NCBI GenBank assembly: GCA_042570925.1
Contig: JBHPFX010000003.1
Coordinates: 10,149 to 74,148 of the forward strand
Direction: 5' to 3'
DNA length: 64,000 bases
Origin: Patescibacteria group bacterium
GTDB lineage: Bacteria; Patescibacteriota; Patescibacteriia; UBA10025
Made by a program: the position numbers and the translations under genes. The notes beneath the pieces are model-generated. The model saw only the letters and a list, made by a program, of their open reading frames with translations, had not been told where the DNA came from and made no database searches. Position 1 is the first letter of the stretch. Each line of letters begins with the position of its first letter. This document shows, one piece after another, positions 17,869-62,254 of this stretch.

Positions 17869-18426
17869 ATGTTAATGATTCGACTTTCCCGAGTCGGTAA
17901 AAAGAAACACCCAACTTTTCGCCTTATCGTATCTGAAAAATCCAAAGATACTCATGGCGACTTTTTAGAACTTCTCGGAACGTATGATCCACATACATCT
18001 CCAGCTACTGTCACTTTAAAAGTAGATCGGATCAAACACTGGATTTCAAACGGTGCCCAGCCATCAGGAGTCGTTCATAATATTCTTATTGATCATGATG
18101 TTATAAAAGGTGAGAAAATCCGTGTGGCCAATATCCGTAAGAAAAAAGAATCTAAAGAAGGCGAAGAGGCTTCTGAAGGTAAGACGCCATCAACTGAGAA
18201 AAAGGAAGAAGTAAAAAAAGAGGAGCCAAAGAAAGAGGGTCCTTCGGCAAGCTCCCCTCGGCCTGCCATCGCCCTGAAGGGCTCAGGCCCTGAACGGGAG
18301 GTCTCGGGACCGAAGGCAGGAGCTGATGAGAAAAAGGAAGAAAAACCTCCCGAGAACAAAGAGCCGGCAGAAAAGAAAGCTGAAGAAAAACCCCAAGACG
18401 ATAAAAAGACTCCAGAGAAACAGTAG
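17869..18426 (+). CDS. rpsP: 30S ribosomal protein S16 with a roughly 100-aa Lys/Glu-rich tail
   Basis: MLMIRLSRVGKKKHPTFRLIV..DRIKHWISNGAQPS. The tail contains a G+C-rich insert at 18241-18317. Confidence 0.85.
   Translation: MLMIRLSRVGKKKHPTFRLIVSEKSKDTHGDFLELLGTYDPHTSPATVTLKVDRIKHWISNGAQPSGVVHNILIDHDVIKGEKIRVANIRKKKESKEGEEASEGKTPSTEKKEEVKKEEPKKEGPSASSPRPAIALKGSGPEREVSGPKAGADEKKEEKPPENKEPAEKKAEEKPQDDKKTPEKQ
18241..18317. repeat. G+C-rich palindromic insert inside the rpsP tail
   Basis: Bounded by CCTTCGG and CCGAAGG. The core CAGGCCCTGAACGGGAGGTCTCGGGACCGAAGG recurs at 22136-22187, 29040-29085, 42810-42855 and 46355-46440. Confidence 0.6.
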
Positions 18427-20123: not shown

Positions 20124-21615
<1,492 letters not shown>

Positions 21616-21889
21616 CTAGGGAGTAAATCTAGATCGCTGACACTTTAGTGTCAGTGAACTGTCGCGTGAAACTCATCTCTTTATTACGTAAAGAGAGATG
21701 TCTCACTTAGGTGCAGTGAACCTGCATATACGATATGACTAACGTGTGAGCTAATTCTTACCACATCAAAGTTGCATAATGACTTACTGCCTACCATATA
21801 TACAGGTTACGCCTTCCCCCTCTTGTTCTTCGGATGTCGAGGCGGTAAACTGTGAGTTGTAGGCTTTTTTCATATTTATTATTCATTCA

Positions 21890-21965
21890 GGGCACGTAGC
21901 TCAGTTGGTTATCCCTCGCTATAGCTCGGGACTTAGGAGCGCTTACTGTACTTTACAGAATTCCC
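21890..21965 (+). pseudogene. 5' part of a second, diverged tRNA-Ile-like copy (outer copy)
   Basis: GGGCACGTAGCTCAGTTGGTTA (acceptor plus D arm), then an insert and a degenerate GAGCGC..anticodon region. Its acceptor partner CGTGCCC is at 22202-22208. Confidence 0.5.
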
Positions 21966-21970
21966 TTGGT

Positions 21971-22047
21971 GGGCGCGTAGCTCAGGTGGTTAGAGCGCGT
22001 CACTGATAATGACGAGGTCGGAGGTTCGAGTCCTCCCGCGCCCACCA
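21971..22047 (+). tRNA. tRNA-Ile (anticodon GAU), CCA encoded
   Basis: GGGCGCG acceptor, CTGATAA anticodon loop, GGTTCGAGTCC T arm, CGCGCCC-A-CCA. Full cloverleaf. Confidence 0.9.
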
Positions 22048-22123
22048 AGGGAATGAAGTGTACCCGACTTTCATGTGAGGTCACTGACCCGTCCTGAGTC
22101 CTGAGCGAAGTCGAAGGACGAAG

Positions 22124-22212
22124 GATAATGACGAGCTCGGCCTTCAGCTCTGAGGCCTGAACGGCTCAGAGCTCAGGCTCGAAGAGAGGTTCAAATCCTC
22201 CCGTGCCCACCA
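22124..22212 (+). pseudogene. 3' part of the outer tRNA-Ile-like copy, with a roughly 50-nt G+C-rich insert in the variable region
   Basis: GATAATGACGAG, then the insert (22136-22187), then GGTTCAAATCCTCCCGTGCCCACCA. Confidence 0.5.
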
Positions 22213-22248
22213 GTGGGCTGATATAGGGTTCTCCGTACGGCGGACAGG

Positions 22249-22292
22249 TAATGACGAGGTCGCCCCGCTATGGCGGGGCCGTGTGCCCACCA
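22249..22292 (+). pseudogene. Further tRNA-Ile 3'-half fragment in which a G+C hairpin replaces the T arm
   Basis: TAATGACGAGGTCG + CCCCGCTATGGCGGGG + CCGTGTGCCCACCA. Confidence 0.45.
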
Positions 22293-22345
22293 GCCGAGGT
22301 AGCCTGTCTGCCGATAGGCAGGCTCAGTAGTAGAGTCCCGCACCA
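22293..22345 (+). pseudogene. 5' part of a second tRNA-Phe-like copy (outer copy) with a hairpin insert in the D arm
   Basis: GCCGAGG-TA-G, then the insert CCTGTCTGCCGATAGGCAG, then GCTCAGTAGTAGAG. Its acceptor partner CCTCGGC is at 22563-22569. Confidence 0.45.
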
Positions 22346-22365
22346 TGTGCCTGGAGGTATATAAT

Positions 22366-22437
22366 GCCTGGGTAGCTCAGTGGTAGAGCGAAGGACTGAA
22401 AATCCTTGCGTCGGCAGTTCAATTCTGCCCCCAGGCA
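22366..22437 (+). tRNA. tRNA-Phe (anticodon GAA)
   Basis: GCCTGGG acceptor, GCTCAGTGGTAGAGC D arm, CTGAAAA loop, GGCAGTTCAATTCTGCC T arm, CCCAGGC-A. Confidence 0.9.
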
Positions 22438-22440
22438 CAT

Positions 22441-22573
22441 GTGCGGGATAGACTCTGGACTGAAAAATCCTGGAGCCTGTCCTGAACATTGCGCGGAGCG
22501 AAATGATTCAGGATCGGCAGTTTCCGCCAAAGGCGGATCCGCCCATGGCGGACAATTCTGCCCCTCGGCACCA
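22441..22573 (+). pseudogene. 3' part of the outer tRNA-Phe-like copy, with a 30-nt double-hairpin insert in the T loop
   Basis: GGACTGAAAAATCC anticodon arm, then GGCAG-TT, the 30-nt insert (22523-22552), then CAATTCTGCC-CCTCGGC-A-CCA. Confidence 0.5.
22523..22552. repeat. 30-nt G+C-rich double-hairpin insert (copy in the tRNA-Phe-like T loop)
   Basis: TCCGCCAAAGGCGGATCCGCCCATGGCGGA. The near-identical TCCGCCAGAGGCGGATCCGCCTTCGGCGGA lies at 42719-42748 inside nusA. Confidence 0.7.
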
Positions 22574-22658
22574 CGCGGCAGTAGTTTCCTTCATTTCATT
22601 CAGGACAGGCAGTTGGTAGTATGGTTTCAAAAAACTTTTAGATAATTTATTGGATAAT

Positions 22659-22733
22659 GCGGGAGTAGTTCAGTAGTAGAACGCTTCCTTGCCAAGGAAG
22701 AGGTCGCGGGTGCGAATCCCGTCTCCCGCTCCA
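22659..22733 (+). tRNA. tRNA-Gly (anticodon GCC), CCA encoded
   Basis: GCGGGAG acceptor, TTGCCAA loop, CTCCCGC-T-CCA. The T loop reads TGCGAAT, with G where U55 is expected. Confidence 0.75.
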
Positions 22734-22875
22734 TCAAGTCTTAAAGAAAAACATTCCTAGATTGATTTGCATGCTTAGCAAATTAAGCAGGAGGAAGCGA
22801 CGCAACTGCTTGCGTCGCGTCGGGATGAACAGGGCGAACGATGTCGCCTGAGGCGACCGTGAGCTTCGGCCCGAA

Positions 22876-22899
22876 GGGCGAGTCCGGTCTGCCGCTCCA
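22876..22899 (+). pseudogene. Duplicated tRNA-Gly(GCC) 3'-end fragment
   Basis: GGGCGAGTCCGGTCTGCCGCTCCA versus the tRNA GGGTGCGAATCCCGTCTCCCGCTCCA. G+C hairpins precede it. Confidence 0.45.
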
Positions 22900-23029
22900 T
22901 CGTGCCATATGTATATAGACCCCAAGATGGTGGGAGTTTGTTATAATAAATAAAGACGAGGCCGCCGTGGTGGAACCCCGCTTCTCCTTCACTGCGTTCA
23001 GGATACGCGGGGCAGGCTGGTAGAATTGT

Positions 23030-23113
23030 GGGCCAGTGGCGGAACTGGTATACGCGCTAGACTTAAAATCTGGTGGTGGCAACACCGTGTGGGTTCGACT
23101 CCCACCTGGCCCA
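23030..23113 (+). tRNA. tRNA-Leu (anticodon UAA), long variable arm
   Basis: GGGCCAG acceptor, CTTAAAA loop, GGTGGCAACACC variable arm, GTGGGTTCGACTCCCAC T arm, CTGGCCC-A. Confidence 0.85.
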
Positions 23114-23220
23114 TTAGCAAGAATAAGACTCTCGAAGCGAAGTCCTGAGCGTAGCGAAGGGCGAAGCGGAGATCCCGTCCTGAGTTTACCGAAGGACGGG
23201 ACGACCGGCGGCATATGACA

Positions 23221-23250
23221 AAAAGAGCGAGGTAGTTACTCGCTCTTTTT
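23221..23250. terminator. Bidirectional terminator between the tRNA array and the convergent gene
   Basis: AAAAAGAGCGAG-GTAGTTA-CTCGCTCTTTTT. Confidence 0.7.
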
Positions 23251-23265
23251 GCTTTGTCATTATAT

Positions 23266-28968: not shown

Positions 28969-28979
28969 TGGAGCGGGTA
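28969..28979 (-). pseudogene. Duplicated 3' end of tRNA-Gly(UCC), followed by a G+C-rich tract
   Basis: TGGAGCGGGTA is identical to the tRNA 3' end at 29161-29171. G+C-rich hairpins lie between the two (28980-29100). Confidence 0.45.
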
Positions 28980-29039
28980 GGACCCCGCTATCCAGCGGGA
29001 TCTCGCAATTATATTTCTTATTGAGCTCGAGAATCGAGT

Positions 29040-29160: not shown

Positions 29161-29235
29161 TGGAGCGGGTAACGGGAATCGAACCCGTATCTTCAGGTTG
29201 GAAACCTGACATAATAGCCATTATACTATACCCGC
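29161..29235 (-). tRNA. tRNA-Gly (anticodon UCC), CCA encoded
   Basis: The reverse complement reads GCGGGTA..TTTCCAA..ACGGGTTCGATTCCCGT-TACCCGC-T-CCA. Same architecture as E. coli tRNA-Gly2. Confidence 0.9.
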
Positions 29236-31346: not shown

Positions 31347-31477
31347 AGCACTCTAAAGAAAACAGTTAAATAAGCGGATTATTAAGCAAATGCAGTTCTT
31401 AAATCCGGATATACGATACATGAATGTATCATATCCGTAAAGGGCCTATATGCTTATACAATAGGTTGTTTTTTTGG

Positions 31478-31560
31478 TCGGGATGCCCGGACTCGCCCTG
31501 CGGGCCTGGGTGCTGCGCTCGCTCGCACCTCTCGAGTCAAATCTCCCAACCTAAACTCAA
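31478..31560 (-). pseudogene. tRNA-Pro 3'-half copy with a G+C-rich insert at the T loop
   Basis: In RNA sense: TTGGGAG..CTCGAGAGGT, the insert GCGAGCGAGCGCAGCACCCAGGCCCGCAGGG, then CGAGTCCGGGCATCCCGA. Confidence 0.5.
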
Positions 31561-31596
31561 TCTTGAATAACTGGATTATGTTGTACTTTTGAAAAA

Positions 31597-31634
31597 TCGG
31601 GATGCCCGGACTCGAACCGGGGACCTCTCGCTCC
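31597..31634 (-). pseudogene. Exact copy of the tRNA-Pro 3' half (38 nt)
   Basis: TCGGGATGCCCGGACTCGAACCGGGGACCTCTCGCTCC is identical to 31683-31720. Confidence 0.6.
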
Positions 31635-31682
31635 TGTTCAGCCCGAGCCACATAATAGCCAATAAAATAATCCTGCGCTGAG

Positions 31683-31756
31683 TCGGGATGCCCGGACTCG
31701 AACCGGGGACCTCTCGCTCCCAAAGCGAGCGTTCTAGCCAACTGAACTACATCCCG
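31683..31756 (-). tRNA. tRNA-Pro (anticodon UGG)
   Basis: The reverse complement reads CGGGATG-TA-GTTCAGTTGGCTAGAAC-G-CTCGC-TTTGGGA-GCGAG..CCCGGTTCGAGTCCGGG-CATCCCG-A. Confidence 0.9.
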
Positions 31757-31812
31757 ACTCAGAGCGAGATTTTTTAGTATGATATTAAGATTCTTAATGT
31801 TCACAGCGAGGG

Positions 31813-31849
31813 CCAAAGCGAGCGTTCTAGCCAACTGAACTACATTCCG
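31813..31849 (-). pseudogene. Copy of the tRNA-Pro 5' half
   Basis: CCAAAGCGAGCGTTCTAGCCAACTGAACTACAT is identical to 31721-31753, then diverges. Confidence 0.55.
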
Positions 31850-31851
31850 CG

Positions 31852-31925
31852 TGGAGGCCACGGGCGGAATCGTTTCCGGGGCGCTTCGCACGCTTGCGCC
31901 CTTCGATTCCTAACCTTCCAAGCCT
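31852..31925 (-). pseudogene. tRNA-Cys 3'-end copy interrupted by a G+C hairpin
   Basis: TGGAGGCCACGGGCGGAATCG is identical to 31964-31984. It is followed by the GGGCGC..GCGCCC hairpin insert and a T-loop remnant. Confidence 0.5.
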
Positions 31926-31963
31926 CTTGTTTTTTAAAGTTACCAAACGATGAAATATCACTT

Positions 31964-32038
<75 letters not shown>

Positions 32039-32102
32039 ATCATTAATGCGTACGAGGAGCGTACCAGAAAACTTCTTCCTTTTCAATAGAAGTAAGTCAG
32101 AA

Positions 32103-42595: not shown

Positions 42596-44197
42596 TTATT
42601 TAGCATCCTCTGAAGATTTTTCTGACTTATCTTCATCAGAAGCTGCCTTGGTTTTTTTAGTTTTTGGCTCCTTATCCTCTTTTTCTTTAATAACTGCTTT
42701 ATTCTCTTTTACCTCTTTTCCGCCAGAGGCGGATCCGCCTTCGGCGGACTTTTCCTCTTTTTCAGGTTTGTTGTTTTCTTTATCAGTTTCTGTCTCTGAT
42801 ACCGTCTTTGACCCGAGGGGCTTCAGGCCCGATTGGGAGGTCTCAGATCGAAGGGAATCACCAGGCTGAGCGGGGTCTGCTGTAAGCTTCGTGCTTTCCG
42901 GGGATGCAGAAGATTCCTTCAGGTCTTTTTCATCGGTAGATTCTTTATCTTCTTTGGCTGGTTCTTCTTTCGGTTTTTGTGCCGCGGGCTTAGTACCTCC
43001 TTCACCGACAATATCAATTTTCCAACCCGTCAGTTTCGCTGATAACCGGACATTTTGACCGGCTTTTCCGATAGCCAAGGAAAGCTGGTCTTCTTTAACC
43101 TCTGCAAGAGCAGTTTTTTCAGCTTCATTAGTTTTAACGCTTAATACTTTTGCAGGTGATAAAGCGTTACTGATAAATATCTCCGAATCATCGGCCCATT
43201 CAATTATATCAATCTTTTCTCCACCGAGCTCGGTGATAATAGTTTGCACTCGACTTCCTCGCTGTCCAACACACGACCCAACAGGATCGATATTGCTTTG
43301 GTGAGCGACGACAGCTACTTTTGATCTGGCACCGGCTTCTCTAGCCACAGATTTAATCTCCACGGAGCCATTATTAATTTCAGGTACTTCAATAGTAAAC
43401 AGTTTGCGGACCATTTCAGCGTGAGAGCGGGAAATAATTATTTCCGGTCCTTTCGGAGTTTTATTAACTGCTACAACAAAAAATTTCATCCTCTGACCGG
43501 GTCGATAGCGTTCATTTGGAATTTGTTCCGGAGGTGGCAGGAGGGCTGCAGTGCGGCCAAGATCAATGATCACCATCTTTCCTTCAATACGCTGGACCGT
43601 TCCATTGATCAGTTGCCCCTCTTTGTCTTTGAATTCCGTATAGATGGTTTCTCGCTCGGCTTCTCGTAATCGTTGAATAATGACCTGTTTTGCAGTTTGA
43701 GCAGCCATTCGGCCATATGCAGCAGGTGGAAATAATTCAGTTTTAATTTCATCTCCAACTTTTGATCCTTTCTTCATTTTTTTCGCTTCAGCAAGCCCAA
43801 CTTCTTTTTTAGGATCAAAGCGGTCTTCCTTCTCATCCTCTCCTTCTTCTGATGACTGATCCTTACCTTTCTTTATTTCCTCTTTCTTTTTAACTTCCTT
43901 TTCTTCCTTACCTTCCTTTTCTTCCGCCTGCTCTTTCTCGCGACGTTTCTCACGTTCCGCCATAAGCTTTTCATAACGTTTTACTTTTTCGTCATCTACA
44001 ACTGCTTTAATATCAAAAACACGAGCCTGGGCTGTTTCTGCGTCAAACTCAACATGAATATTTTGATTTTTTTCTCCAAAGTCTTTTCGATAAGCTACGG
44101 CAAGCGCTGCTTCAATGGTTTCAACCACTGCTTCCATTGAAATGTTCTTTTCCTCCGTAATTTGCTTCATTGCTTGATATATTGACGATTGCGCCAT
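42596..44197 (-). CDS. nusA: Transcription termination/antitermination factor NusA, with a Lys/Glu-rich insertion and a long low-complexity tail
   Basis: N-terminal domain (AIEAALAVAYRK), S1 (GTVQRIEGKMVIIDLG) and KH1/KH2 (AVVA.....DPVGSCVGQRGSRV; AIGKAGQNVRLSAKLTGWKIDI). The tail contains two G+C-rich inserts. Confidence 0.85.
   Translation of the reverse strand: MAQSSIYQAMKQITEEKNISMEAVVETIEAALAVAYRKDFGEKNQNIHVEFDAETAQARVFDIKAVVDDEKVKRYEKLMAEREKRREKEQAEEKEGKEEKEVKKKEEIKKGKDQSSEEGEDEKEDRFDPKKEVGLAEAKKMKKGSKVGDEIKTELFPPAAYGRMAAQTAKQVIIQRLREAERETIYTEFKDKEGQLINGTVQRIEGKMVIIDLGRTAALLPPPEQIPNERYRPGQRMKFFVVAVNKTPKGPEIIISRSHAEMVRKLFTIEVPEINNGSVEIKSVAREAGARSKVAVVAHQSNIDPVGSCVGQRGSRVQTIITELGGEKIDIIEWADDSEIFISNALSPAKVLSVKTNEAEKTALAEVKEDQLSLAIGKAGQNVRLSAKLTGWKIDIVGEGGTKPAAQKPKEEPAKEDKESTDEKDLKESSASPESTKLTADPAQPGDSLRSETSQSGLKPLGSKTVSETETDKENNKPEKEEKSAEGGSASGGKEVKENKAVIKEKEDKEPKTKKTKAASDEDKSEKSSEDAK
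42719..42748. repeat. 30-nt G+C-rich double-hairpin insert, in frame in nusA (encodes SAEGGSASGG)
   Basis: TCCGCCAGAGGCGGATCCGCCTTCGGCGGA. The stems are identical to 22523-22552 and only loop bases differ. 30 nt equals 10 codons, and I checked the frame against the ORF coordinates. Confidence 0.7.
42810..42855. repeat. G+C-rich palindromic element copy inside the nusA tail
   Basis: GACCCGAGGGGCTTCAGGCCCGATTGGGAGGTCTCAGATCGAAGGG aligns with the rpsP insert core, on the same + strand text although the two genes are on opposite strands. Confidence 0.6.
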
Positions 44198-50554: not shown

Positions 50555-51487
50555 ATGCCCTCAAAACTCCAAAATTATATTACACAGTATCTCGAGTATC
50601 TTGAGATAGAAAAAAACAAATCCCCTTTAACTGTAAGGAATTATGAATTTTATCTGCGAAGATTCCTTACATGGGGCCAATTAAAAAATCCGGAAGACAT
50701 CACGCTTGAGAAAGTACGACAGTATCGCCTGTTTCTCAACCGTCTTAAAAGCCAGCGAAAAGAATTCGTAAAAAAATCAACGCAAAATTATCATCTCATT
50801 GCCCTTCGATCGTTTTTAAAATATTTAGCGCGTAATGATGTAACAACACTTGCTCCTGAGAAAATTGAACTTGCAAAGATCTCCGAACGCCAAGTTTCAT
50901 TTCTTGAAGGAGATGATCTGGAGCGTTTTCTCGAAGCTCCGTTGAAATCAAAAGAGTCAGAAATTATTCAGCAGCGTGATAAAGCACTTTTAGAACTACT
51001 ATTTTCTACTGGATTGCGTGTATCAGAGCTCGCCTCCTTACAACGCGATTCGATCAATCTTACAAAGGATGAATTCACCGTGCGCGGAAAAGGCGGAAAA
51101 CTACGAGTGGTTTTTCTTTCAAACCAATCGAAGCATTGGATAAAAAAATATCTGGCGACACGGAAAGATGATGCTTCACCACTTTTTTTACGACATGACC
51201 GGGCAGCAGCTTCTGAAAAAGATCCGAAATCAATTACCTCAAGGTCCATTCAGCGAATAGTTGAAAGTTATGCAAAGCAGGCAGGCATTACAAAAAAAGT
51301 CACCCCGCATACACTGCGCCACAGTTATGCGACTGATCTTCTCATGAACGGAGCTGATATTCGCTCGGTACAATCAATGCTCGGGCATGCCTCAATTACT
51401 ACCACACAGATTTATACTCATATAACTAATCAGCAGCTGCGAGACGTGTATAAGGCGTTTCATGCTCGAAGAAGAAAAAAGGAATGA
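50555..51487 (+). CDS. Tyrosine site-specific recombinase (XerC/XerD-like)
   Basis: N-terminal SAM-like domain (YLEYLEIEKN.SPLTV.NY). Catalytic R (GLRVSEL), HTLRHSYAT, GH and the TQIYTH tyrosine. Confidence 0.85.
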   Translation: MPSKLQNYITQYLEYLEIEKNKSPLTVRNYEFYLRRFLTWGQLKNPEDITLEKVRQYRLFLNRLKSQRKEFVKKSTQNYHLIALRSFLKYLARNDVTTLAPEKIELAKISERQVSFLEGDDLERFLEAPLKSKESEIIQQRDKALLELLFSTGLRVSELASLQRDSINLTKDEFTVRGKGGKLRVVFLSNQSKHWIKKYLATRKDDASPLFLRHDRAAASEKDPKSITSRSIQRIVESYAKQAGITKKVTPHTLRHSYATDLLMNGADIRSVQSMLGHASITTTQIYTHITNQQLRDVYKAFHARRRKKE

Positions 51488-51647
51488 TTTGACGAATGTG
51501 ACGTTTGTCCTATACTGATTAGCCAATTTCTTCTACAATTCAACATATTATGCGCCCATAGTTTTCCTCGCATGCGCTCGGAACTTTCAGCCCTCCGCTG
51601 CGCTCAGGACAGGCAACGGATAGAAAAATTGCTTGAACTCCCCTGGT

Positions 51648-51722
51648 GCCCCTGTAGTTCAACGGATAGAACGGTGGCCTTCTAAGCCTCAGATCGAGGT
51701 TCGATTCCTCGCGGGGGCACCA
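51648..51722 (+). tRNA. tRNA-Arg (anticodon UCU), CCA encoded
   Basis: GCCCCTG acceptor, GTTCAACGGATAGAAC D arm, CTTCTAA loop, CGAGGTTCGATTCCTCG T arm, CGGGGGC-A-CCA. One U-U mismatch in the anticodon stem. Confidence 0.8.
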
Positions 51723-51734
51723 GGGGAGTAAATC

Positions 51735-51812
51735 GCATTCGATTCTCGAAGTATAAACGGAAACCCTGAGGATGACACGAAATGTCATGCCGAAGGGCTG
51801 GTGGGCGCACCA
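51735..51812 (+). pseudogene. Degenerate tRNA-Arg 3' fragment split by an insert
   Basis: GCATTCGATTCTCG (T-arm-like), a roughly 50-nt insert, then GGTGGGCGCACCA. Confidence 0.4.
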
Positions 51813-52809: not shown

Positions 52810-53032
52810 AAAGCTGACATTCGTGGTGGCTATGGGTCGAGGCAATAAGTGAAGCTGAATGCTTCACGCATGCCGAGACGGGCGAAGCGTTGTCCCGAGT
52901 AATCGAGGGACCGTGAAGCCCCGGAGTAGTGGTAGCATCCTTCGACTTCGCTCAGGACATTGCAGAGGCCTGCCGAAGGTCCCGCTCGCCAAAGCCTCGA
53001 AAGACAATTAATTACTGAAAGGGATGTGCGGG

Positions 53033-53104: not shown

Positions 53105-53210
53105 CCCGCCCACCTCTTTTGTGATTTTTTTGAATTTACTTGCGTGCTTTGGCGGGCAGGGATGACCTGCTCTGAGCGTGGCCCGCCGTAGGCGGGAGAA
53201 GCCGAAGAGA

Positions 53211-53363
53211 GCCTTTAGCTCGGGTTCGAGCCCCGATAGCGACCTTTTTCTCTGAGCATTGTGTTCGAAGAAAAAGGAAAAAACATCTCCTATTCATTGT
53301 GAGGTGTTTTTGGTTCCAGAAAAGAGGTATACTATATTTAGATAATCATTAGAATAAATATGT
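53211..53363 (+). repeat. Composite intergenic element, copy 1 (starts with a long tRNA-His 3'-half-like segment)
   Basis: GCCTTTAGCTCGGGTTCGAGCCCCGATAGCGACC, hairpin 53243-53277, terminator CATCTCC..GAGGTG plus T run, then the GGTATACT promoter. Confidence 0.7.
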
Positions 53364-54743
53364 ATGATTAATCAAAGAGGATTCATTAGTGCAACATTGG
53401 TTGTCATTATTGTAGTGCTCGCAGTTTTTATGGTTGGAGTTGCTTGGTATTATGAGGAGAATAAGGAAGAAATCAGTTCGGAGACAGTAAATACTCCGAT
53501 TAATTCGAATAGCAATATTAATTCATCAATACTTCATAATACTAATTCGATAGCTTCGAATGAACTTTTTCCGAAAGTGGCATATTTAGATTCAGGTAAT
53601 ATATATTCATTAAGTTTGTCATATGCAGACGTACAACTACTTGTTTCAAATGCAACGCCAATCATTGAATACGATATTTCTGATAATGGTCAGCATATTA
53701 TATATCTTGTAGCTAGCGATAATGAAAGCGAGATACATTATTATAACGTTTTGGATGAAAATGATTCCGTAGTATTGAAGGAAACAAATGTTTATTATCA
53801 TAGTATTGCGTTGTCGCCAGATAATACAAAAATTGCATATGCAAAAAAGAATTTCAACAGCTCAGTGAATAAATTTCTTAATCAAGCAATTTATGTAAGC
53901 GACCTTAATGGTAATGATGAGAACAAAATAGTAGATATTGGAAAGACTGAGGATGAAGTTAGTGAATATTACGGTAATGATGTCTGTGAATGGTCAAATG
54001 ACTCCAATCTTATTGGGCTTGAAAAGTGGTCCCCAGAGAGTGATTATTTAGTTTATTATATAAATGATAACTATGAATGTAGTGGTCCAGGGCATTCAAT
54101 AATACACATTACTGATTTGAATGGTAATGAAAGCTTTTTTGATGAACATTTGCCAAATCCAGGGACATATATATTTAATGAAGAAGAAAGGGAGTGGAGC
54201 GCTGCGGATATTTTTTGGCAGACTTTTTCTTCGGATAATGGTGACTTTATTCTTAAACAGCGAGCAGGTATGCCCTTTGTAAATAGTAGAGTAGTATTTG
54301 TCAAGGATGGTGAGGTGGTATCCGCATTTAATACTGTTGATTACCAAGATGACGAATATCAAAATAATACCCAAAGGCTTAGATCACACTATGAATATGG
54401 ATTTGACGTAGTTGGATGGGATGAAAGAATTAGTTATTTTGGGGGTAGGGCAGGTGAACCTGGTACTAATGAAGTGATAAAGACAAACATTGCCGGAGGA
54501 AATATTATTCAGTTAACCAATACTGAGGATGATTTGGCATTTACTCACCCAATAGTAATTGATGATGAGTATGTACTTTTTAGAAGGTATAATATAGATC
54601 CAGTTACTAATCAATACGGAAATACGTCTAGTTCTAAATCAGATACGTATGATATTTTAGTAAAGAATGTTGAAAATAATGAAGAAACTATTATTACTGA
54701 GGGGGCAGCTTTTAATCTGTTGAAGATTTACAGGTTGGAATGA
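53364..54743 (+). CDS. Pilin-signal-like anchored surface protein, family member 1 (C-terminal TolB/beta-propeller-like repeats)
   Basis: MINQRGFISATLVVIIVVLAVFMVGVAWYYEENKEE, an Asn/Ser-rich linker, then repeats such as DISDNGQHIIYL and IALSPDNTKIAYA. Confidence 0.6.
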   Translation: MINQRGFISATLVVIIVVLAVFMVGVAWYYEENKEEISSETVNTPINSNSNINSSILHNTNSIASNELFPKVAYLDSGNIYSLSLSYADVQLLVSNATPIIEYDISDNGQHIIYLVASDNESEIHYYNVLDENDSVVLKETNVYYHSIALSPDNTKIAYAKKNFNSSVNKFLNQAIYVSDLNGNDENKIVDIGKTEDEVSEYYGNDVCEWSNDSNLIGLEKWSPESDYLVYYINDNYECSGPGHSIIHITDLNGNESFFDEHLPNPGTYIFNEEEREWSAADIFWQTFSSDNGDFILKQRAGMPFVNSRVVFVKDGEVVSAFNTVDYQDDEYQNNTQRLRSHYEYGFDVVGWDERISYFGGRAGEPGTNEVIKTNIAGGNIIQLTNTEDDLAFTHPIVIDDEYVLFRRYNIDPVTNQYGNTSSSKSDTYDILVKNVENNEETIITEGAAFNLLKIYRLE

Positions 54744-54792
54744 TTGTTACTTTTTTTGGGTTGATTTGATCATATTGAATCGCTTAGATAGG

Positions 54793-54987
54793 TTTGACAT
54801 ATACCCAAAATCACCAAAAACTCCCATAAGATTAGTTAAAATAACGTACCGATAGCCACCTTTTTCTCTGAGTATTAGATTCGGAGCAAAAGGAAAAGAC
54901 ATCTTCCCCACACCATATAATGGTGTGTGGGAGAGGTGTTTTTGTTAGAGAAATGGTATAATGAATATATAAAATTAATATAATAAA
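54793..54987 (+). repeat. Composite intergenic element, copy 2
   Basis: Box A, CCGATAGCCACC, hairpin 54859-54893, long terminator hairpin 54898-54943, TGGTATAAT extended -10. Confidence 0.7.
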
Positions 54988-55701
54988 ATGCAAATAGCAG
55001 ATAATAAGAAGTTAAAAAAGCATCCCCTTGATTATGCGATAAAATCATCTCGTGTCATAGCCACAATTATCCTTTTTTATGGATTTATGATGGGCTTGGC
55101 AATTGGTTTTTTCGGTATCCCTCTAAACATTACCGTTTATGGTACATCAATTTCTGGATTTATTCCCTACCTTATCGCCATAGTAATAGCTGTAGCCTCA
55201 TTCATTTTATATCCAATATTATTAAAAAAGAAGTATCCTGGCATTAAAACAAATATATATACTATTGGAAAATTAAAAACGCACGTTGGATTATTAACCC
55301 TTATCGCAGGCGGAGCTGGTTTCGTCTTAGCATTATGGGCATATATTCTTCTTTTTATCAAAACATCAGATAATACCTCCATCAATGAATTTCTATATTA
55401 CCCAAACTATGCAACTAAAATTGCATTTATACCTATAATTGCCTCGGTTTATTTTTCTTTTCTTAAAAAAATAATATCTCACTCCCTAAAAGCAATCGAG
55501 CTTGTTTTTCTTGTTTTTTCTACAATCCTGTTAATTATGGTGGCTGCTTTCATTTCTTTTGTGGGCATCAGTAATTCAATGATTGAAAACTGGTGGTTAC
55601 TCATTCCTGACTTGATTGCCGGAGGCTCATCATATACTTTTGCTATGTTCTTTTTGCTAAAATTTAGGCCCACGGAAAATATACAGTCTTCAAGCACTTA
55701 A
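54988..55701 (+). CDS. Hypothetical multi-pass membrane protein
   Basis: Six or so hydrophobic segments. No motif. Confidence 0.5.
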   Translation: MQIADNKKLKKHPLDYAIKSSRVIATIILFYGFMMGLAIGFFGIPLNITVYGTSISGFIPYLIAIVIAVASFILYPILLKKKYPGIKTNIYTIGKLKTHVGLLTLIAGGAGFVLALWAYILLFIKTSDNTSINEFLYYPNYATKIAFIPIIASVYFSFLKKIISHSLKAIELVFLVFSTILLIMVAAFISFVGISNSMIENWWLLIPDLIAGGSSYTFAMFFLLKFRPTENIQSSST

Positions 55702-55780
55702 TAATTGGAGCACTAAAGTTCGAAAACTATCAAATTCAAACAATAAGAACTCTGAACAGTTATTCCTATTGAGCAATACT

Positions 55781-56791
55781 TTAATTGGCTCCTGTAAAGC
55801 TAAAACTTTCGACTACTTCTGTAAAAATCTGCTCCGCAGTTTGTTGAACATCAGCGCCATACAATACGCTAATCTCAAATATTATTGATCCTTCTCCCTG
55901 AGGGCTGTTTATTGTGTCAGTGTTATATATAACCGTCGAATAATTGATAGGTGAATCAGGTGTTTGTTCAGTACCGCTCAGTTTCTTTGCTGCATAGCCG
56001 CCTAAAGTTGAACTTGTTTCACTAGTTAAACTACGAGAATAGTCACCAGAGCTATTAAAATTTGGGCTAGTATATTCATCTTGAGTATCTAACATAACAC
56101 TAATAGACATACAATCTGCGGGTATTGAAAAAATCTCAAAACTTCTAATTAAGCAATCCTCACTTGAGTAATACGTTCTATTGGCGTCATAAATTGACAC
56201 TGTACTTTCAAGGCCTGATTCGCTCAAGTCTAAAAAATATAAATTATCAGGGTACTCAAAAGAAAAACTATAATCATCATTAGTATATGTTAACCAATTA
56301 TCCAGCATCGTGTTTGTTAATTGGGTATTGGTGCTTTCAGTAGAATTTACATTACTTGTATTTATATTATCTATATTTTCATTAATATTTCTAACAAGTT
56401 GGGTATTTGTATTATCTGCAAATAAATTTTCGTTAAGATTCCCTAAGTTAATATTACTATTCTGATTAACTAAAGAATTAACATTAGAGACAGGGGTGTT
56501 TTTTATTACAACACCCTCCGTTTTATTATCTTTATTGAAAAACAAAAAATATACTGCTAAACCAGCTAAGATAACAAATACAACAACTACGATTATAATT
56601 AGTGTGGACTTATTACTAGCGCTTACCGTCACATTTGGCTGTCTAGCACTTTTCTGGACGTCAGATGGATTTAATATTTCAGAAATCATTTCTCGAGTAT
56701 AACCCTGAGCCAATAATTTTTCGGTAATTTGTTCATCTGTTAAGCCAGCAGCCCTTGCCTGCTCTAACCATTGTTTAATTGCATCATTCAT
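55781..56791 (-). CDS. Membrane-anchored surface protein with the N-terminal helical module, an Asn-rich linker and a unique C-terminal domain
   Basis: MNDAIKQWLEQARAAGLTDEQITEKLLAQGYTREMISEIL is about half identical (by eye) to the N-terminus of 23943-26717. TM, then an NVNSLVNQNSNINLGN.. linker. Confidence 0.6.
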   Translation of the reverse strand: MNDAIKQWLEQARAAGLTDEQITEKLLAQGYTREMISEILNPSDVQKSARQPNVTVSASNKSTLIIIVVVVFVILAGLAVYFLFFNKDNKTEGVVIKNTPVSNVNSLVNQNSNINLGNLNENLFADNTNTQLVRNINENIDNINTSNVNSTESTNTQLTNTMLDNWLTYTNDDYSFSFEYPDNLYFLDLSESGLESTVSIYDANRTYYSSEDCLIRSFEIFSIPADCMSISVMLDTQDEYTSPNFNSSGDYSRSLTSETSSTLGGYAAKKLSGTEQTPDSPINYSTVIYNTDTINSPQGEGSIIFEISVLYGADVQQTAEQIFTEVVESFSFTGAN

Positions 56792-56825
56792 AGTTTATAT
56801 ATTTAGTAATCTAACATCCTTTATT

Positions 56826-57010
56826 AAGCTTACCATATACCCAAAATCCTCCAAAACCTTAACAAACTCAGACTTTTTAGTTAAACTAACCTTATCCCTC
56901 GACTCGTTCCACTTGCTCGGGACAGGCGGTAGCGACCTTTTTCTCTGAGCATTTAAGTTCGAAGAAAAAGGAAAAGACATCTCCCCTTATGAGGGAGGTG
57001 TTTTTGGTAT
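56826..57010 (+). repeat. Composite intergenic element, copy 3 (+ orientation between two minus-strand genes)
   Basis: Box A, a G+C tract, GGTAGCGACC, hairpin 56936-56971, terminator 56976-57005. Confidence 0.65.
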
Positions 57011-57013
57011 TAT

Positions 57014-57337
57014 TTATTCGCTACTCAACGCTACAATAATCAAAGTTATAAATGCAAGTACTATTAAAGAAAAATATATAGCAAGTCTACTAATAATTTT
57101 TCCTTTAGACGTATTTTTTTTAGTTTTATAAAGGCTGATAATACCTAGAACAAGAGGTATGAAAAAAGAGATTATAATTAAGTCTATTCGGAGAACTTCT
57201 GATATGTCCATCATAAACAAAATAAAGTTCGTTCCGGCAATTAGAAATAAAACAAAAGCAATAATTGCTAATTTGTTAAATTTCTTCTTTGGTTGTTCTG
57301 ACTGTGGCGCTGGTTGTTGTTTTGTTAGTTCTTCCAT
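57014..57337 (-). CDS. Hypothetical small 3-TM membrane protein
   Basis: Hydrophobic segments only. Confidence 0.45.
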   Translation of the reverse strand: MEELTKQQPAPQSEQPKKKFNKLAIIAFVLFLIAGTNFILFMMDISEVLRIDLIIISFFIPLVLGIISLYKTKKNTSKGKIISRLAIYFSLIVLAFITLIIVALSSE

Positions 57338-57370
57338 ATTTATATCTTTAGTGACTTAATCTCCTGCATT

Positions 57371-57560
57371 AAGTCTACCACATACCTAAAATCCCCTAAA
57401 ACCCTCATAAGATTAGTTAAAATAACGTACCGATAGGGACCTTTTTCTCTGAGCATTGTGTTCGAAGAAAAAGGAAAAAACATCTCCTATTCATTGTGAG
57501 GTGTTTTTGGTTCCAGAAAAGAGGTATACTATATTTAGATAATCATTAGAATAAATATGT
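57371..57560 (+). repeat. Composite intergenic element, copy 4
   Basis: Box A, CCGATAGGGACC, hairpin 57440-57474. Identical to copy 1 from 57438 onward. Confidence 0.7.
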
Positions 57561-58358
57561 ATGATTAATCAAAGAGGATTCATTAGTGCAACATTGGTTG
57601 TCATTATTGTAGTGCTCGCAGTTTTTATGGTTGGAGTTGCTTGGTGGTATGAGGAGAATAAAGAGGAGGTTGCAAATACTCAGGTTGTTAGTAACGAATC
57701 TATTGAAAACAATTCTGTAAATGTGAAGAATTCGAATGCAATAAATTCTAATGCAGCAACGAATACTAATTTCGTTTCCAACACCAATTCAACTACTAAT
57801 GTAAACACAAACGTTACCTCAGATAGTGGCAATAACTGGCGCACAGTTAATTATAATAAAAACGATTTGAGTTTTTTAATCAGCGTTCCTGCTGACTGGA
57901 GAGAAGAAACCAGCCTCTATAATCCACCACGAGAAAGATATTCTTTGATTAGTTATACTTGGCCGCCAGAAAGTGGCGTTACTCAATATCTCAGATTAAT
58001 TGTCAGATATTTTATAAATGATGAAGCCTCATTAAAGGAGTGGGTTGATAAGCACGAAACACATCTCCGAGAAGGTGAACAAAATCATAATCGTCTAACA
58101 GAACTTACTTTGAGCGAAATAACAGTTAATGGAGAGTTAGGATATGCATATGACGCTGATTATAAAAGAACAATTGGCGAGTGGGATGATGAAGGAAATT
58201 ACGTTGGAACTAAAATTGAGCATAAATCATACAAATATATTAATTTTCAAAAAGATAATAAAATTTATCAAATTTATATTGGTGGTGATAATAATCTCGT
58301 AATCGATAATCAGGATTTAATTATTGAAATTATTGACTCCTTTAATTTTCTCGAATAA
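57561..58358 (+). CDS. Pilin-signal-like anchored surface protein, family member 2
   Basis: The first 28 aa are identical to 53364-54743. AWWYEENKEE, an Asn/Thr-rich linker, and an unrelated C-terminal domain. Confidence 0.6.
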   Translation: MINQRGFISATLVVIIVVLAVFMVGVAWWYEENKEEVANTQVVSNESIENNSVNVKNSNAINSNAATNTNFVSNTNSTTNVNTNVTSDSGNNWRTVNYNKNDLSFLISVPADWREETSLYNPPRERYSLISYTWPPESGVTQYLRLIVRYFINDEASLKEWVDKHETHLREGEQNHNRLTELTLSEITVNGELGYAYDADYKRTIGEWDDEGNYVGTKIEHKSYKYINFQKDNKIYQIYIGGDNNLVIDNQDLIIEIIDSFNFLE

Positions 58359-58550
58359 GTCTACCATATACCTGAAATCCCCTAAAACACCCATAAGGTT
58401 AGTACAAATAAGCGACCCCTTCGGCTTCGCTCAGGGCAGGCCGATAGGGACCTTTTTCTCTGAGCATTTACGTTCGGAGCAAAAGGAAAAGACATCTCTC
58501 AGGTTATGAGAGGTGTTTTTTTATAATAGAATAATGCTATAATTTAATAT
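58359..58550 (+). repeat. Composite intergenic element, copy 5
   Basis: Starts right after the stop codon. Box A, CTTCGGCTTCGCTCAGGGCAGGCCGATAGGGACC, hairpin 58451-58486, terminator, then TGCTATAAT 7 nt before the ATG. Confidence 0.7.
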
Positions 58551-58997
58551 ATGAAATTCATTTCTTCATTGCTCATACTCGTATCTAGTATAGCCGGCGG
58601 CATCTTTTTGGCTAGGCTGATAAAGAATAAAATAACTGATTTCAAAAAATACGGAGTCTTGTTTATTATTTATTCATTTGTAAATATTGCACTCCTTGGC
58701 TTAAGTGAGAAGACTCAAGTATTAATAATAGATATATATGTTGCGTGGACTATCGCCTTTGCAGCACTTATTATTTTTTTAATTCTTGTTCGAAAACAAC
58801 CAAGTATAAAAAAAATATTAAGCTTACGAGAAAATGTGAGTTATGAGTGGAGTAAAGATGCTAAGTTATTTCAGAAGGTGATCATACGGCTATCCACTGT
58901 TGGAGCACTTTATGGAGTAATTATATTAGCTTATTTTGACTTATTCGGGATTGTAATTGCGATTATTGAAGTATTAAAGAGAGTTAATCTTATTTGA
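58551..58997 (+). CDS. Hypothetical 4-TM membrane protein (possibly a leaderless mRNA)
   Basis: Hydrophobic segments. The -10 box ends 7 nt before the ATG. Confidence 0.45.
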   Translation: MKFISSLLILVSSIAGGIFLARLIKNKITDFKKYGVLFIIYSFVNIALLGLSEKTQVLIIDIYVAWTIAFAALIIFLILVRKQPSIKKILSLRENVSYEWSKDAKLFQKVIIRLSTVGALYGVIILAYFDLFGIVIAIIEVLKRVNLI

Positions 58998-59082
58998 TTA
59001 CAAACATCTCCCTTTTTGAAGAAGTGTTTTTGGTTGGGAAAAAGAGTATAATATATTTAGATAATCATTCAAATATATACCT
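58998..59082 (+). repeat. Composite element, short form (terminator and promoter modules only)
   Basis: ACATCTCCC..GAAGTGTTTTTGG, then AGAGTATAATATATTTAGATAATCATT. Confidence 0.55.
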
Positions 59083-60147: not shown

Positions 60148-60189
60148 TACCACAATCTAGCTCAGTACTTGTTTACTTTCGTGTAGTAG

Positions 60190-60395
60190 CTTTCTGGTAT
60201 ACCTAAAATCCCTTAAAACCTTTATAAGATTAGTACAAATAAGCGACCCCTTCGGCTTCGCTCAGGGCAGGCCGATAGGGACCTTTTTCTCTGAGCACTT
60301 ATGTTCGGAGCAAAAGGAAAAGACATCCTCCCTTTTATAAGAGGAGGTGTTTTTGGTAAGAAAGTGATATAATATATCTAACTTAATGAATTACT
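60190..60395 (+). repeat. Composite intergenic element, copy 7
   Basis: Box A and a G+C tract identical to copy 5. Hairpin 60282-60317, terminator, TGATATAAT. Confidence 0.7.
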
Positions 60396-60872: not shown

Positions 60873-60899
60873 TAAAATTTGTTTTACTTCTTTCAATAA

Positions 60900-61100
60900 A
60901 ACTCTCGTACACCCAAAATCACCTAAAACACCCATAAGATTATTTAATATAACCTTACCCTTCAACTTCCCCTTCGATTCGCTCAGGGCGGGGCCGATAG
61001 GGACCTTTTTCTCTGAGCATTATGTTCGGAGCAAAAGGAAAAGACATCTCTCTATTCAAGAGAGGTGTTTTTGATTTAAGAAAAGGAGTATACTACAAGT
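60900..61100 (+). repeat. Composite intergenic element, copy 8
   Basis: Box A, CCCTTCAACTTCCCCTTCGATTCGCTCAGGGCGGGGCCGATAGGGACC, hairpin 61004-61038, terminator, promoter. Confidence 0.7.
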
Positions 61101-62175: not shown

Positions 62176-62254
62176 AGAGAAGTAGTATACTAACGAACAA
62201 TTATTAAATCAAAAACACTTCTGTTATTCAAAAAGTGTTTTTGAAAGTCTGAAA

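Follow-up and report, generated by a model that had tools for sequence, protein, structure and literature searches.

The 64-kb window considered here, by which the whole stretch of analysed DNA is meant, comes from the genome of a member of the Parcubacteria, ultra-small bacteria of the candidate phyla radiation (CPR), and has a G+C content of about 42%. ARAGORN and Rfam place nine tRNA genes in it, four after the 16S rRNA gene and five elsewhere, and each of the nine has partial copies of itself beside it on the same strand, with tRNA-Leu the least well supported. We give a probability of roughly 0.5 to the reading that these partial copies represent older resident tRNA genes, each cut in two by hairpin-shaped DNA insertions. 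An old tRNA gene would have been cut cleanly at a loop position by a hairpin-shaped unit with base-pairing ends; the largest units (about 100-300 nt) would bear a complete tRNA at their tip, the gene now working, so that each tRNA would sit inside the wreck of its predecessor, sometimes several layers deep, and the smallest units (15-50 nt) would be dispersed families common to Parcubacteria genomes that keep inserting in D, anticodon and T loops. The observations that carry this reading are the nesting itself, the polarity of the pieces, clean insertion in loops only, turnover of the hairpins, pairing between the outer halves and a lack of flank duplication.

In a census of 54 tRNAs on 54 Parcubacteria loci (705 kb), in which exact pieces of at least 11 nt were counted within 400 nt of the parent gene, there were 25 same-sense and 2 antisense pieces, and control flanks at a distance of 3 kb contained none. 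Without exception the 12 pieces found upstream are 5' parts and the 13 found downstream are 3' parts. Spliced alignments of the pieces score 23-62 and the maxima of shuffled queries 16-24; a chance origin of the partial copies is excluded.

The comparison sequences, referred to by L numbers, were reached by a TrmD scan of genome contigs and a scan of metagenome contigs with an endonuclease/phosphatase family protein (relatives at 45-67%), and the closer ones through protein searches and contig look-ups. Relatives of the window's TrmD, UDG and GIDE-domain proteins all come from metagenome-assembled genomes of Patescibacteria/Parcubacteria. Among named genomes Parcubacteria GW2011_GWA2_48_9, which also bears the label Kerfeldbacteria, is nearest with a 16S identity of 91.3%, and other relatives lie at about 80-82%. 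A closer relative is present in the Logan assembly of SRR22387827, its neighbouring proteins being 95-97% identical (L054, L058). Partial copies of the same pattern occur in L001, L002, L003, L017, L043, L055-56, L059 and L060, as well as in that independent assembly, and so the fragments are not restricted to the window, as comparison of the same loci across relatives, proposed by the earlier sequence-only reading, now establishes.

Nested architecture of the tRNA loci

The 16S rRNA gene (20124-21615) is followed by no 23S gene but by tRNA-Ile, Phe, Gly(GCC) and Leu, around which lie the following features.

21890-21942, plus strand: outer tRNA-Ile 5' part (tRNA positions 1-28), acceptor strand GGGCACG, with a clean 25-nt D-loop hairpin insert at 21912-21936; orthologous in L001
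21960-22054, plus strand: Ile inner unit with functional tRNA-Ile(GAU) at 21971-22047 and an 11-bp perfect leader-trailer extension of the acceptor stem; 100% identical in L001
22079-22212, plus strand: outer tRNA-Ile 3' part (positions 29-77) with two inserts, 38 nt in the anticodon loop (22086-22123) and 46 nt (22141-22186), both missing in L001; acceptor strand CGTGCCC pairs with 21890-21896
22217-22292, plus strand: second, degenerate tRNA-Ile copy, its T arm replaced by the hairpin GCCCCGCTATGGCGGGGC; not in L001; meets the outer Phe 5' part with 0 nt between
22293-22335, plus strand: 5' part of outer tRNA-Phe with GCCGAGG as acceptor strand and, in the D loop, a clean hairpin insert of 20 nt
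22336-22448, plus strand: foldback unit with termini TCCCGCAC...GTGCGGGA around functional tRNA-Phe(GAA) at 22366-22438
22449-22573, plus strand: outer tRNA-Phe 3' part with several inserts, in its T loop the 30-nt double hairpin TCCGCCAAAGGCGGATCCGCCCATGGCGGA (22523-22552); acceptor strand CCTCGGC plus ACCA pairs with 22293-22299
22575-22621, plus strand: outer tRNA-Gly(GCC) 5' part, acceptor strand GCGGCAG, 1 nt after outer Phe
22659-22733, plus strand: functional tRNA-Gly(GCC) (ARAGORN, Rfam)
22791-22899, plus strand: 3' part of outer tRNA-Gly(GCC), containing G+C inserts; its acceptor strand, CTGCCGC followed by TCCA, pairs with 22575-22581
22961-23028, plus strand: probable outer tRNA-Leu 5' part GCCGCCGTGGTGGAAC with D-loop hairpin CCCCGC..GCGGGG; the weakest case
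23029-23114, plus strand: functional tRNA-Leu(UAA) (ARAGORN, Rfam)
23115-23251, plus strand: downstream side of Leu, with CTGAGCG..CGAAGG hairpin modules at 23145-23160 and 23180-23195
23206-23213, plus strand: probable outer Leu acceptor 3' strand, CGGCGGC plus A
23219-23251, plus strand: operon terminator after the Leu locus

On the minus strand tRNA-Cys and tRNA-Pro are arranged in a similar manner, and here one of the layers seems to be very young.

31964-32038, minus strand: functional tRNA-Cys(GCA) (ARAGORN; Rfam tRNA, 66.5 bits)
31852-31872, minus strand: displaced tRNA-Cys 3' end (positions 55-75, exact over 21 nt, CCA at its end), beginning in the T loop and lying 2 nt from the outer Pro 5' half
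31873-31915, minus strand: G+C hairpin block (GGGGCGCTTCGCACGCTTGCGCCCC and flanks) replacing the 5' side of the Cys T arm; its hairpin GGGGCGC..GCGCCCC precedes the exact 21-nt copy
31813-31849, minus strand: outer (older) tRNA-Pro 5' half (positions 1-37, 36/37 identical), ending at the anticodon
31635-31812, minus strand: inserted hairpin unit around functional tRNA-Pro, with a left arm of 56 nt and a right arm of 47 nt, mutually complementary over 38 nt (76%) and unrelated to the flanks of the outer Pro halves
31682-31756, minus strand: functional tRNA-Pro(UGG) (ARAGORN, Rfam)
31597-31634, minus strand: outer tRNA-Pro 3' half (positions 37-74, exact over 38 nt), contiguous with the outer 5' half
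31477-31549, minus strand: oldest tRNA-Pro 3' piece, with an 8-nt insert and a 19-nt exact 3' end; a G+C block (GGTGCGAGCGAGCGCAGCACC, GCCCGCAGGGC) stands for the 5' side of the T arm

The remaining three loci hold the following.

28969-29037, minus strand: tRNA-Gly(UCC) 3' piece with an exact 11-nt acceptor end, the hairpin CCCGCTGGATAGCGGG replacing the T arm
29161-29235, minus strand: functional tRNA-Gly(UCC) (ARAGORN, Rfam)
51552-51625, plus strand: 5' part of outer tRNA-Arg with GCGCCCA as acceptor strand; a clean insert of 50 nt follows TAGTT in the D loop, and directly upstream is a promoter-like site (51489-51516)
51637-51733, plus strand: Arg inner unit with functional tRNA-Arg(UCU) at 51648-51722 and an 11-bp perfect leader-trailer extension
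51738-51812, plus strand: outer tRNA-Arg 3' part, TTCGATTC, an insert, then TGGGCGC plus ACCA, of which TGGGCGC pairs with 51552-51558; kept in the independent assembly (L058)
52825-53019, plus strand: outer tRNA-His 5' pieces GGTGGCTATGG, GGAGTAGTGGTAGCA and CAGAGGCCTG with hairpin modules between them, two of these modules being swapped for unrelated hairpins in L058
53033-53107, plus strand: functional tRNA-His(GUG), the inner gene (ARAGORN, Rfam)
53120-53244, plus strand: right arm and outer tRNA-His 3' part (53210-53244)

Where both outer halves can be read they fit together end to end. The splits are contiguous for the window's Ile (1-28 and 29-77) and Pro (1-37 and 37-74) and for the His gene of L059 (1-34 and 35 onwards), at which the inserted unit has complementary G+C termini, and with an overlap of 0-1 nt it follows that no crossover core was duplicated. 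When the inserts are deleted, ARAGORN accepts the outer copies as tRNA-Ile in the window and in L001 and as tRNA-Pro in the window; for outer Arg, which is without positions 25-52, and for Cys, Gly(UCC) and Phe the outer parts do not add up to an intact tRNA. The outer genes stand 0 nt (Ile/Phe), 1 nt (Phe/Gly) and 2 nt (Cys/Pro) apart, the spacers in intact tRNA clusters of L004, L003 and L001 being 3-5 nt, and promoter-like sites and the operon terminator are located outside the outer halves. Because the outer halves abut as a tight cluster with the transcription signals outside them, the outer copies appear to be the original genes and the working genes to lie on inserted DNA.

For six window tRNAs, and also for L017 Ile and L002 Gly, the outer acceptor strands pair with one another in a form that is distinct from that of the inner gene, and for the six isoacceptors below the strands (5' / 3') read as follows.

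tRNA-Ile: outer GGGCACG / CGTGCCC, inner GGGCGCG / CGCGCCC
tRNA-Phe: outer GCCGAGG / CCTCGGC, inner GCCTGGG / CCCAGGC
tRNA-Gly(GCC): outer GCGGCAG / CTGCCGC, inner GCGGGAG / CTCCCGC
tRNA-Arg: outer GCGCCCA / TGGGCGC, inner GCCCCTG / CGGGGGC
tRNA-Leu: outer GCCGCCG / CGGCGGC, inner GGGCCAG / CTGGCCC
tRNA-His: outer GGTGGCTAT / ATAGCCACC (L058), inner GGTGACTAT / ATAGTCACC

In L059 the outer Arg 5' piece represents another tRNA-Arg(UCU) type, almost the same in sequence as the gene that works in L060, and the inner gene resembles that of the window; the inner gene there is thus no recent copy of the outer. Nor do the flanks point to copying in place, since none of nine leader and trailer comparisons in the window, including those at the very young Pro event, exceeded its shuffles, and a positive control, the tRNA-Pro of L003, gave a flank comparison of 65 against a shuffle maximum of 37. 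Start-to-start spacing of successive copies is exactly 119 nt at Ile (22002/22121), Pro (31478/31597) and His (52923/53042), and 123 nt to the next Ile copy.

The oldest Pro piece terminates in CCA and is followed by chromosomal flank; the inner Pro copies are without CCA. An orthologue of this piece with the same GGCCCGCAGGGC hairpin is held by L055, and in each case the T-stem of the old piece matches the working gene of its own genome (CCGGG in the window, CCGGC in L055). That an orthologous piece tracks the variant of its own genome points to gene conversion.

Some further features of these loci may be recorded. The 16S gene and its four tRNAs (20124-23251) are apparently one transcription unit with the strong terminator 23219-23251 at its end, and the order TrmD-16S-tRNA-Ile-Phe is kept in several Parcubacteria. 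Relative to the UDG gene the Cys/Pro block (31477-32102) is inverted when compared with L054 (10556-10728) and L055 (16690-18280); in L055 the two are separated by a pyruvate kinase gene and about 7.7 kb of further genes. Such an inversion could have come about through the repeated Pro 3' pieces. Gene callers may annotate an open reading frame (ORF) of 145 codons that crosses the Pro fragments and hairpins (31454-31891, minus strand); it matches nothing in Pfam and is almost certainly spurious.

The pieces at Pro and Cys that the sequence-only reading had listed were all recovered where it had placed them, its other loci (Gly(GCC), Gly(UCC), Arg and His) do carry 3' or 5' pieces, and the cuts it described at T loops and anticodon loops are real. 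The Ile, Phe and weaker Leu pieces come in addition to the loci it named, as do the strict nesting and polarity, the pairing of the flanks, the dispersed hairpin families and the array at tRNA-His.

Hairpin modules inserted in loops

Scattered through the dead tRNA halves are small G+C-rich hairpin modules of 15-50 nt. By manual reading of alignments all 15 scored modules are exact additions in loops, with no loss of a tRNA base and no target duplication: 10 in the D loop, 3-4 in the T loop, one in the anticodon loop and one in the variable region. Loops make up, by our estimate, roughly 40% of a tRNA, and so confinement of all 15 to loops is not a matter of chance. At the ends of the modules read no GTAG or CGTC tag was seen.

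The best marked family is a 30-nt double hairpin (TCCGCC-AAA-GGCGGA / TCCGCC-CAT-GGCGGA) with compensatory stem changes among its copies. It occurs in tRNA pieces (the Phe T loop of the window, the D loops of Pro in L003 and His in L043), near the Cys gene of L002, in L013, and, as TCCGCCAAAGGCGGATCAGCCTATGGCTGA, between two ORFs on related IMG/VR contigs classed as viral (L061 3802-3827, L062 3535-3560), where more small G+C hairpins come after it. The second copy in the window is in frame in a protein.

42720-42749, minus strand: double hairpin translated as SAEGGSASGG in the low-complexity C-terminal tail of NusA

More G+C-rich stretches lie directly upstream in the same tail (NusA gene 42596-44197, minus strand), and the long C-terminal extension of ribosomal protein S16 (ORF 17869-18426) holds a G+C-rich island (18244-18282) that may be another in-frame module. 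The 64 kb of the window thus hold two copies of the double hairpin, and seven of the CTGAGCG..CGAAGG type, with more in five other genomes and the two viral contigs. Members of the latter family, with the loop motif CTGAGCG..(T/C)CGAAGG, lie at 58418-58434, 60249-60265, 60971-60986, 52939-52955, 22101-22117 and 23145-23195; copies upstream of tRNAs are oriented opposite to downstream copies, and the motif is found also in the A+T-rich hairpin that opens each repeat of the tRNA-His array (CCTTTTTCTCTGAGCA..TTCGAAGAAAAAGG).

Filled and empty sites show these modules to come and go. The 38- and 46-nt Ile inserts of the window have no counterpart in L001, and L054 has a 24-nt T-loop hairpin where the window (Pro 31597-31634) has an exact tRNA copy. 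Between the window and L058, with flanks about 1% diverged, two hairpins are replaced by unrelated ones at the same sites, L058 has one extra layer of 48 nt, and one deletion between repeated His pieces separates the two. At the larger end of the size range, tRNA-free foldbacks of 26-150 nt with the termini of the Phe unit (TCCCGCAC..GTGCGGGA) are present in L010, L013, L021 and L049, the family termini CCCGCACC..GGTGCGGG being found in these four as they are around tRNA-Phe in the window. The leaders of the Ile and Arg units (21960-22054 and 51637-51733) are alike, ATTCCCTTGGT against ACTCCCCTGGT. For the Ile unit a search of IMG/VR gave no match that would indicate a viral origin, and at relaxed thresholds Rfam returned only tRNAs and chance-level matches.

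Competing origins for the partial copies

At tRNA-His the nested pieces run into a structure of another scale.

53234-63640, plus strand: array of 7 small gene cassettes (0.5-2.6 kb) with 8 repeats of about 190 nt

The core of the repeat is the tRNA-His 3' end, CG(A/G)TAG(C/G)(C/G)ACC, and the repeats lie at 53234, 54850, 56927, 57431, 58442, 60273, 60995 and 63630. The first is the outer His 3' half, which doubles as an attL-like copy, and the last keeps CCA and the original flank, after which unrelated DNA begins. G+C content is 33-35%, the cassettes code mostly for unknown proteins, five of the repeats have G+C hairpin modules directly before the core, and L058 carries different genes at this position. 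Cargo genes are present and no integrase was found inside the array. This is a true integrase-type structure of attachment-site (att) repeats, on the kilobase scale, and looks like the outcome of serial site-specific integration or an integron- or tycheposon-like array. Its last cassette (62688-63479) encodes a heliorhodopsin (Pfam E = 3e-99), and a 171-nt repeat, 98% identical between 53300-53470 and 57497-57667 and made up of a promoter-like region with the first 35 or so codons, is shared by two different cassette genes (53364-54743 and 57561-58358). A Xer-like tyrosine recombinase gene (50555-51487) lies directly upstream of tRNA-Arg and 1.7 kb upstream of tRNA-His; it falls below the XerC and XerD cut-offs and above that of an archaeal XerA/integron-integrase model (235 against 220 bits).

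The sequence-only reading had seen in a full gene with downstream 3' fragments the scar of integrase att-site duplication, and had left a choice between decayed serial integrations and a distinct tRNA-targeting micro-element. T loop, anticodon loop and tRNA 3' end are the usual crossover sublocations of integrases, and on the first of these alternatives such enzymes would have duplicated tRNA segments and the cargo would later have been deleted, so as to leave stubs of 50-200 bp. A good deal speaks for it: in the manner of islands, prophages and tycheposon-like arrays the window has intact tRNAs with same-strand 3' copies, the distal-most Pro piece with its CCA and chromosomal flank (the inner copies being without CCA), many 3' pieces that begin in the T loop or anticodon loop or break at the 3' end, a recombinase gene near at hand, and at 53.2-63.6 kb an array of eight His 3'-end repeats, the last with CCA and original flank, that fits such a system well. 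For the pieces of 50-300 nt we nevertheless think it improbable. Upstream 5' halves are about as common as 3' parts (12 against 13 of the 25 exact pieces), no crossover core is duplicated at the contiguous joints, and the working gene lies complete between the halves, both its acceptor strands differing from the outer pair, so that it is no chimera of resident and element. The halves pair as an ancestral cluster; the intervening DNA is a hairpin with a complete tRNA, the 46-130 nt between copies being self-complementary arm with no coding remnant and the inserts as a whole 46-300 nt of non-coding arm and tRNA. The recombinase, for its part, is a conserved gene, syntenic in L059 and L060 and found in relatives both with and without arrays. 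The integrase idea therefore stands for the tRNA-His array, at the kilobase scale only, and falls for the small pieces, to which the micro-element comes close.

Replication slippage or template switching at structured tRNAs, which would produce partial tandem duplications, inverted duplications by palindrome extension and hairpin filler with no mobile element and with selection keeping one intact copy, strikes us as rather unlikely, although partial tandem duplication would by itself yield the polarity observed and the tRNA-Pro of L003 is just such a plain tandem duplication of leader and 5' part. Leaders contain inverted copies of the tRNA 3' end and trailer (at Ile and Arg TGGT opposite ACCA, at Phe TGCCTGG opposite CCAGGCA), the right half of the 46-nt Ile insert is an imperfect reverse complement of its left half and the adjoining flank, and a deletion between repeated His pieces distinguishes the window from L058. 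The reading is at odds with the flanks, of which none of the nine compared is duplicated, not even at Pro, where identities of 36/37 and 38/38 mark a very young event, with the coincidence of 5' and 3' break points in Ile, Pro and L059 His, with the recurrence of one double hairpin and of the CCCGCACC termini at unrelated sites, genomes and viral contigs, and with the outer Arg of L059, which is a different tRNA type from the gene within it. Several related origins can be set aside. Full tandem arrays with later decay are ruled out by the lack, among the 25 pieces, of any upstream 3' or downstream 5' part; a rolling-circle or permuted origin predicts the opposite polarity, and single-crossover integration of a circle with a full tRNA predicts two complete genes and not nesting. 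Diversity-generating retroelements, considered on account of the G+C hairpins, were dropped as the differences between copies are not adenine-specific, and TIGR or CRISPR-like arrays as there is no regular period.

A further possibility is that the flanks are kept mainly as useful RNA, that is as leader-trailer processing stems, for example RNase III substrates comparable to the stems on either side of rRNAs. The two arms around an inner tRNA are complementary to each other; the Ile locus in its entirety forms a single nested hairpin, which the outer acceptor stem closes (z = -7.5 in the window, -10.2 in L001), and arms deprived of the inner tRNA still fold far better than shuffles (for example -105 against -75 kcal/mol). 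Perfect leader-trailer extensions of the acceptor stem are confined to nested genes, the other 37 tRNAs having 0-3 bp, and repeatedly measure 11 bp (Ile and Arg of the window, Ile of L001, His of L059 and L060), which with the acceptor stem makes an 18-bp duplex; L002 Gly has 13 bp, and Pro and His of the window 6 and 5 bp. In 9 of 10 loci the sense strand gives the better RNA fold, and long-range G-U pairs number 38/386 in sense against 17/326 in antisense. Window and L001 share an orthologous nested Ile structure with conserved non-tRNA leader and trailer, these and a CTGT..ACAG hairpin of variable loop being kept across 9% 16S divergence; one compensatory pair differs between the His leaders and trailers of L059 and L060, and promoters and terminator stand outside the outer halves. 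A constraint on the flanks at the RNA level is plausible. As the principal account, however, it seems to us improbable, for many Parcubacteria manage with spacers of 3-20 nt and no flanks (L004), hairpins are swapped, gained and lost at 1% divergence as constrained RNA is not, the sense bias is modest, and why the arms should be tRNA halves, and modules stand in a protein tail and on viral contigs, is left unexplained. It accounts for persistence of the flanks and not for their origin, and so can coexist with the insertion of hairpin units in older genes.

That the outer genes still function, as tRNAs with several introns of which one holds a tRNA, or as split tRNAs joined via the arms, we regard as very improbable. 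The small inserts are all clean and in loops, their removal restores a recognisable tRNA-Ile and tRNA-Pro, the outer acceptor stems are paired through compensatory changes, and long complementary G+C arms hold the halves together; yet base pairing at the insert termini begins with the very first base, inspection of the sequence finding no bulge-helix-bulge and no 3-nt bulges, many outer copies lack whole arms (Arg positions 25-52; Cys and Gly(UCC) have 3' ends only), stems contain mismatches (Pro A4·C69, Ile G27·G43), and the same inserts lie in pieces that are 5' only (L003, L043). The same tRNA always exists in an intact copy as well, and there is no Rfam match to a group I intron at the gathering threshold in the window, nor at E<=1 in two scanned loci. 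An assembly artefact, by which a short-read metagenome assembler would have concatenated strain variants of one locus, can hardly be the explanation. The window is apparently from a metagenome-assembled genome, and in the close relative these loci are where contigs break off, L054 (at 10728) inside tRNA-Pro and L058 (at 1) inside tRNA-Arg, repeated tRNA pieces apparently breaking short-read assembly. The same architecture with diverged sequence nevertheless recurs in assemblies made independently, by other assemblers and in other projects: L054 and L058 carry it, as do L055 and L056, which are identical at the Pro locus where compared. Orthologous pieces differ by substitutions and clean indels, as real evolution would have it.

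The insertion of hairpin-shaped units in resident genes is thus the reading we prefer, and some of its steps can be sketched. Since insertion in an essential single-copy tRNA gene would be survivable only with a working copy, only insertions that bring their own replacement would be seen. The wrecks may stay recognisable through gene conversion by the working gene, and the primary transcript, with its outer halves and arms paired, probably forms one long leader-trailer helix which is either tolerated or of use in processing. The units may well be mobile as hairpins, possibly as folded single-stranded DNA handled by an enzyme of HUH or Xer/IntI type or through template switching in replication. 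Several points weigh against this account. No transposase or recombinase is tied to the units, the one Xer-like gene of the window being syntenic in relatives, and copy numbers rest on 64 kb of this genome. At Cys, Gly(UCC), L059 Arg and L003 Pro there is a single half only, and the duplicated leader of the last, a plain tandem duplication, means that more than one process has been at work. At Phe and Ile a stretch of the leader repeats, in inverted form, the 3' end of the tRNA itself together with the trailer, and this fits local template switching as well as it does a mobile element. Persistence of the nested Ile structure across 9% 16S divergence suggests constraint and not pure junk, and the compensatory differences of the outer stems could come from arm-to-arm conversion and not from a separate origin.

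A bolder version, which we put forward tentatively and hold to be possible though doubtful, takes the inner units to be selfish non-coding tRNA cassettes, in which a foldback with a tRNA at its tip inserts in the loop of the homologous gene and becomes indispensable. Replacement of the essential gene would be addictive, and successive invasions would build layers in the manner of a Russian doll; foreign variants would displace residents, as the tRNA-Arg(UCU) type that sits inside the wreck of another in L059 may have done, and the hairpins of 15-50 nt would be cargo-less members of the same loop-seeking system.

Known elements and the meaning for CPR genomes

Among bacterial repeats, REP/REPIN sequences and the Rickettsia palindromic elements come nearest to the small modules, being likewise short dispersed hairpins with presence/absence sites and no target duplication, and the in-frame copy in the NusA tail has its parallel in the copies that Rickettsia palindromic elements place in protein tails. 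REP/REPIN are short palindromic repeats mobilised by RAYT transposases (PMC3733652, PMC3116915), and a REP in the strict sense is tagged at one end by a conserved tetranucleotide, GTAG or CGTC (PMC3733652). The modules of the window differ in their smaller units (15-30 nt), in having no such tag, in their tRNA-loop targets and in that some enclose a whole tRNA. No gene of RAYT type was seen in the 64-kb window, of which not all ORFs were scanned.

Double-hairpin elements are known from Allomyces mitochondria, and G+C palindromes flank tRNA genes in those of Neurospora. The window resembles such mitochondrial G+C clusters and double-hairpin elements in having G+C hairpins in an A+T-richer genome, spread over intergenic DNA, RNA genes and coding regions, but its host is a free bacterial genome and not an organelle. 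To our knowledge no link of the mitochondrial elements to halves of duplicated tRNAs or to nested replacement copies has been described. In yeast and sponges these clusters and repetitive hairpin-forming elements are mobile between strains and occur near tRNA genes (PMC4478555, PMC2800124).

With the disrupted tRNAs of archaea, which may be split, permuted or interrupted by several introns, the window shares short hairpin-like inserts at non-canonical loop positions and halves flanked by complementary G+C; it differs in being bacterial, in its lack of a bulge-helix-bulge, in the damaged or incomplete outer copies and in the intact copy that is always present. In the tyrT operon of E. coli a tRNA is followed by repeats that each end in a copy of the tRNA 3' end and are co-transcribed with it (RtT). 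Those repeats are 178-bp tandem units that lie downstream only, with none of the 5' halves, nesting or hairpin inserts of the window, and the Rfam RtT RNA match (RF00391) at 31467-31565 is far below threshold (20.5 against 45 bits, E = 0.24). Searches of the full-text literature gave no description of tRNAs nested in the halves of their predecessors, of such a route of gene turnover, or of hairpin modules in the CPR.

Loci of this kind make tRNA spacers about ten times longer, interrupt short-read assemblies, give rise to spurious ORFs and promote local rearrangement, and so bear on the annotation and binning of CPR genomes. The 18-bp perfect duplexes around nested tRNAs lead to a concrete prediction on the processing of tRNA precursors in these organisms. 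The modules would be a new class of element in the CPR, very small palindromes that seek out tRNA loops and also enter protein tails and viral contigs. If the preferred reading is true, hairpin units that bear a substitute gene replace, from the inside, the essential single-copy tRNA genes of the smallest bacterial genomes. The evidence suggests an undescribed way of replacing essential genes, and not the ordinary scarring of phage integration.

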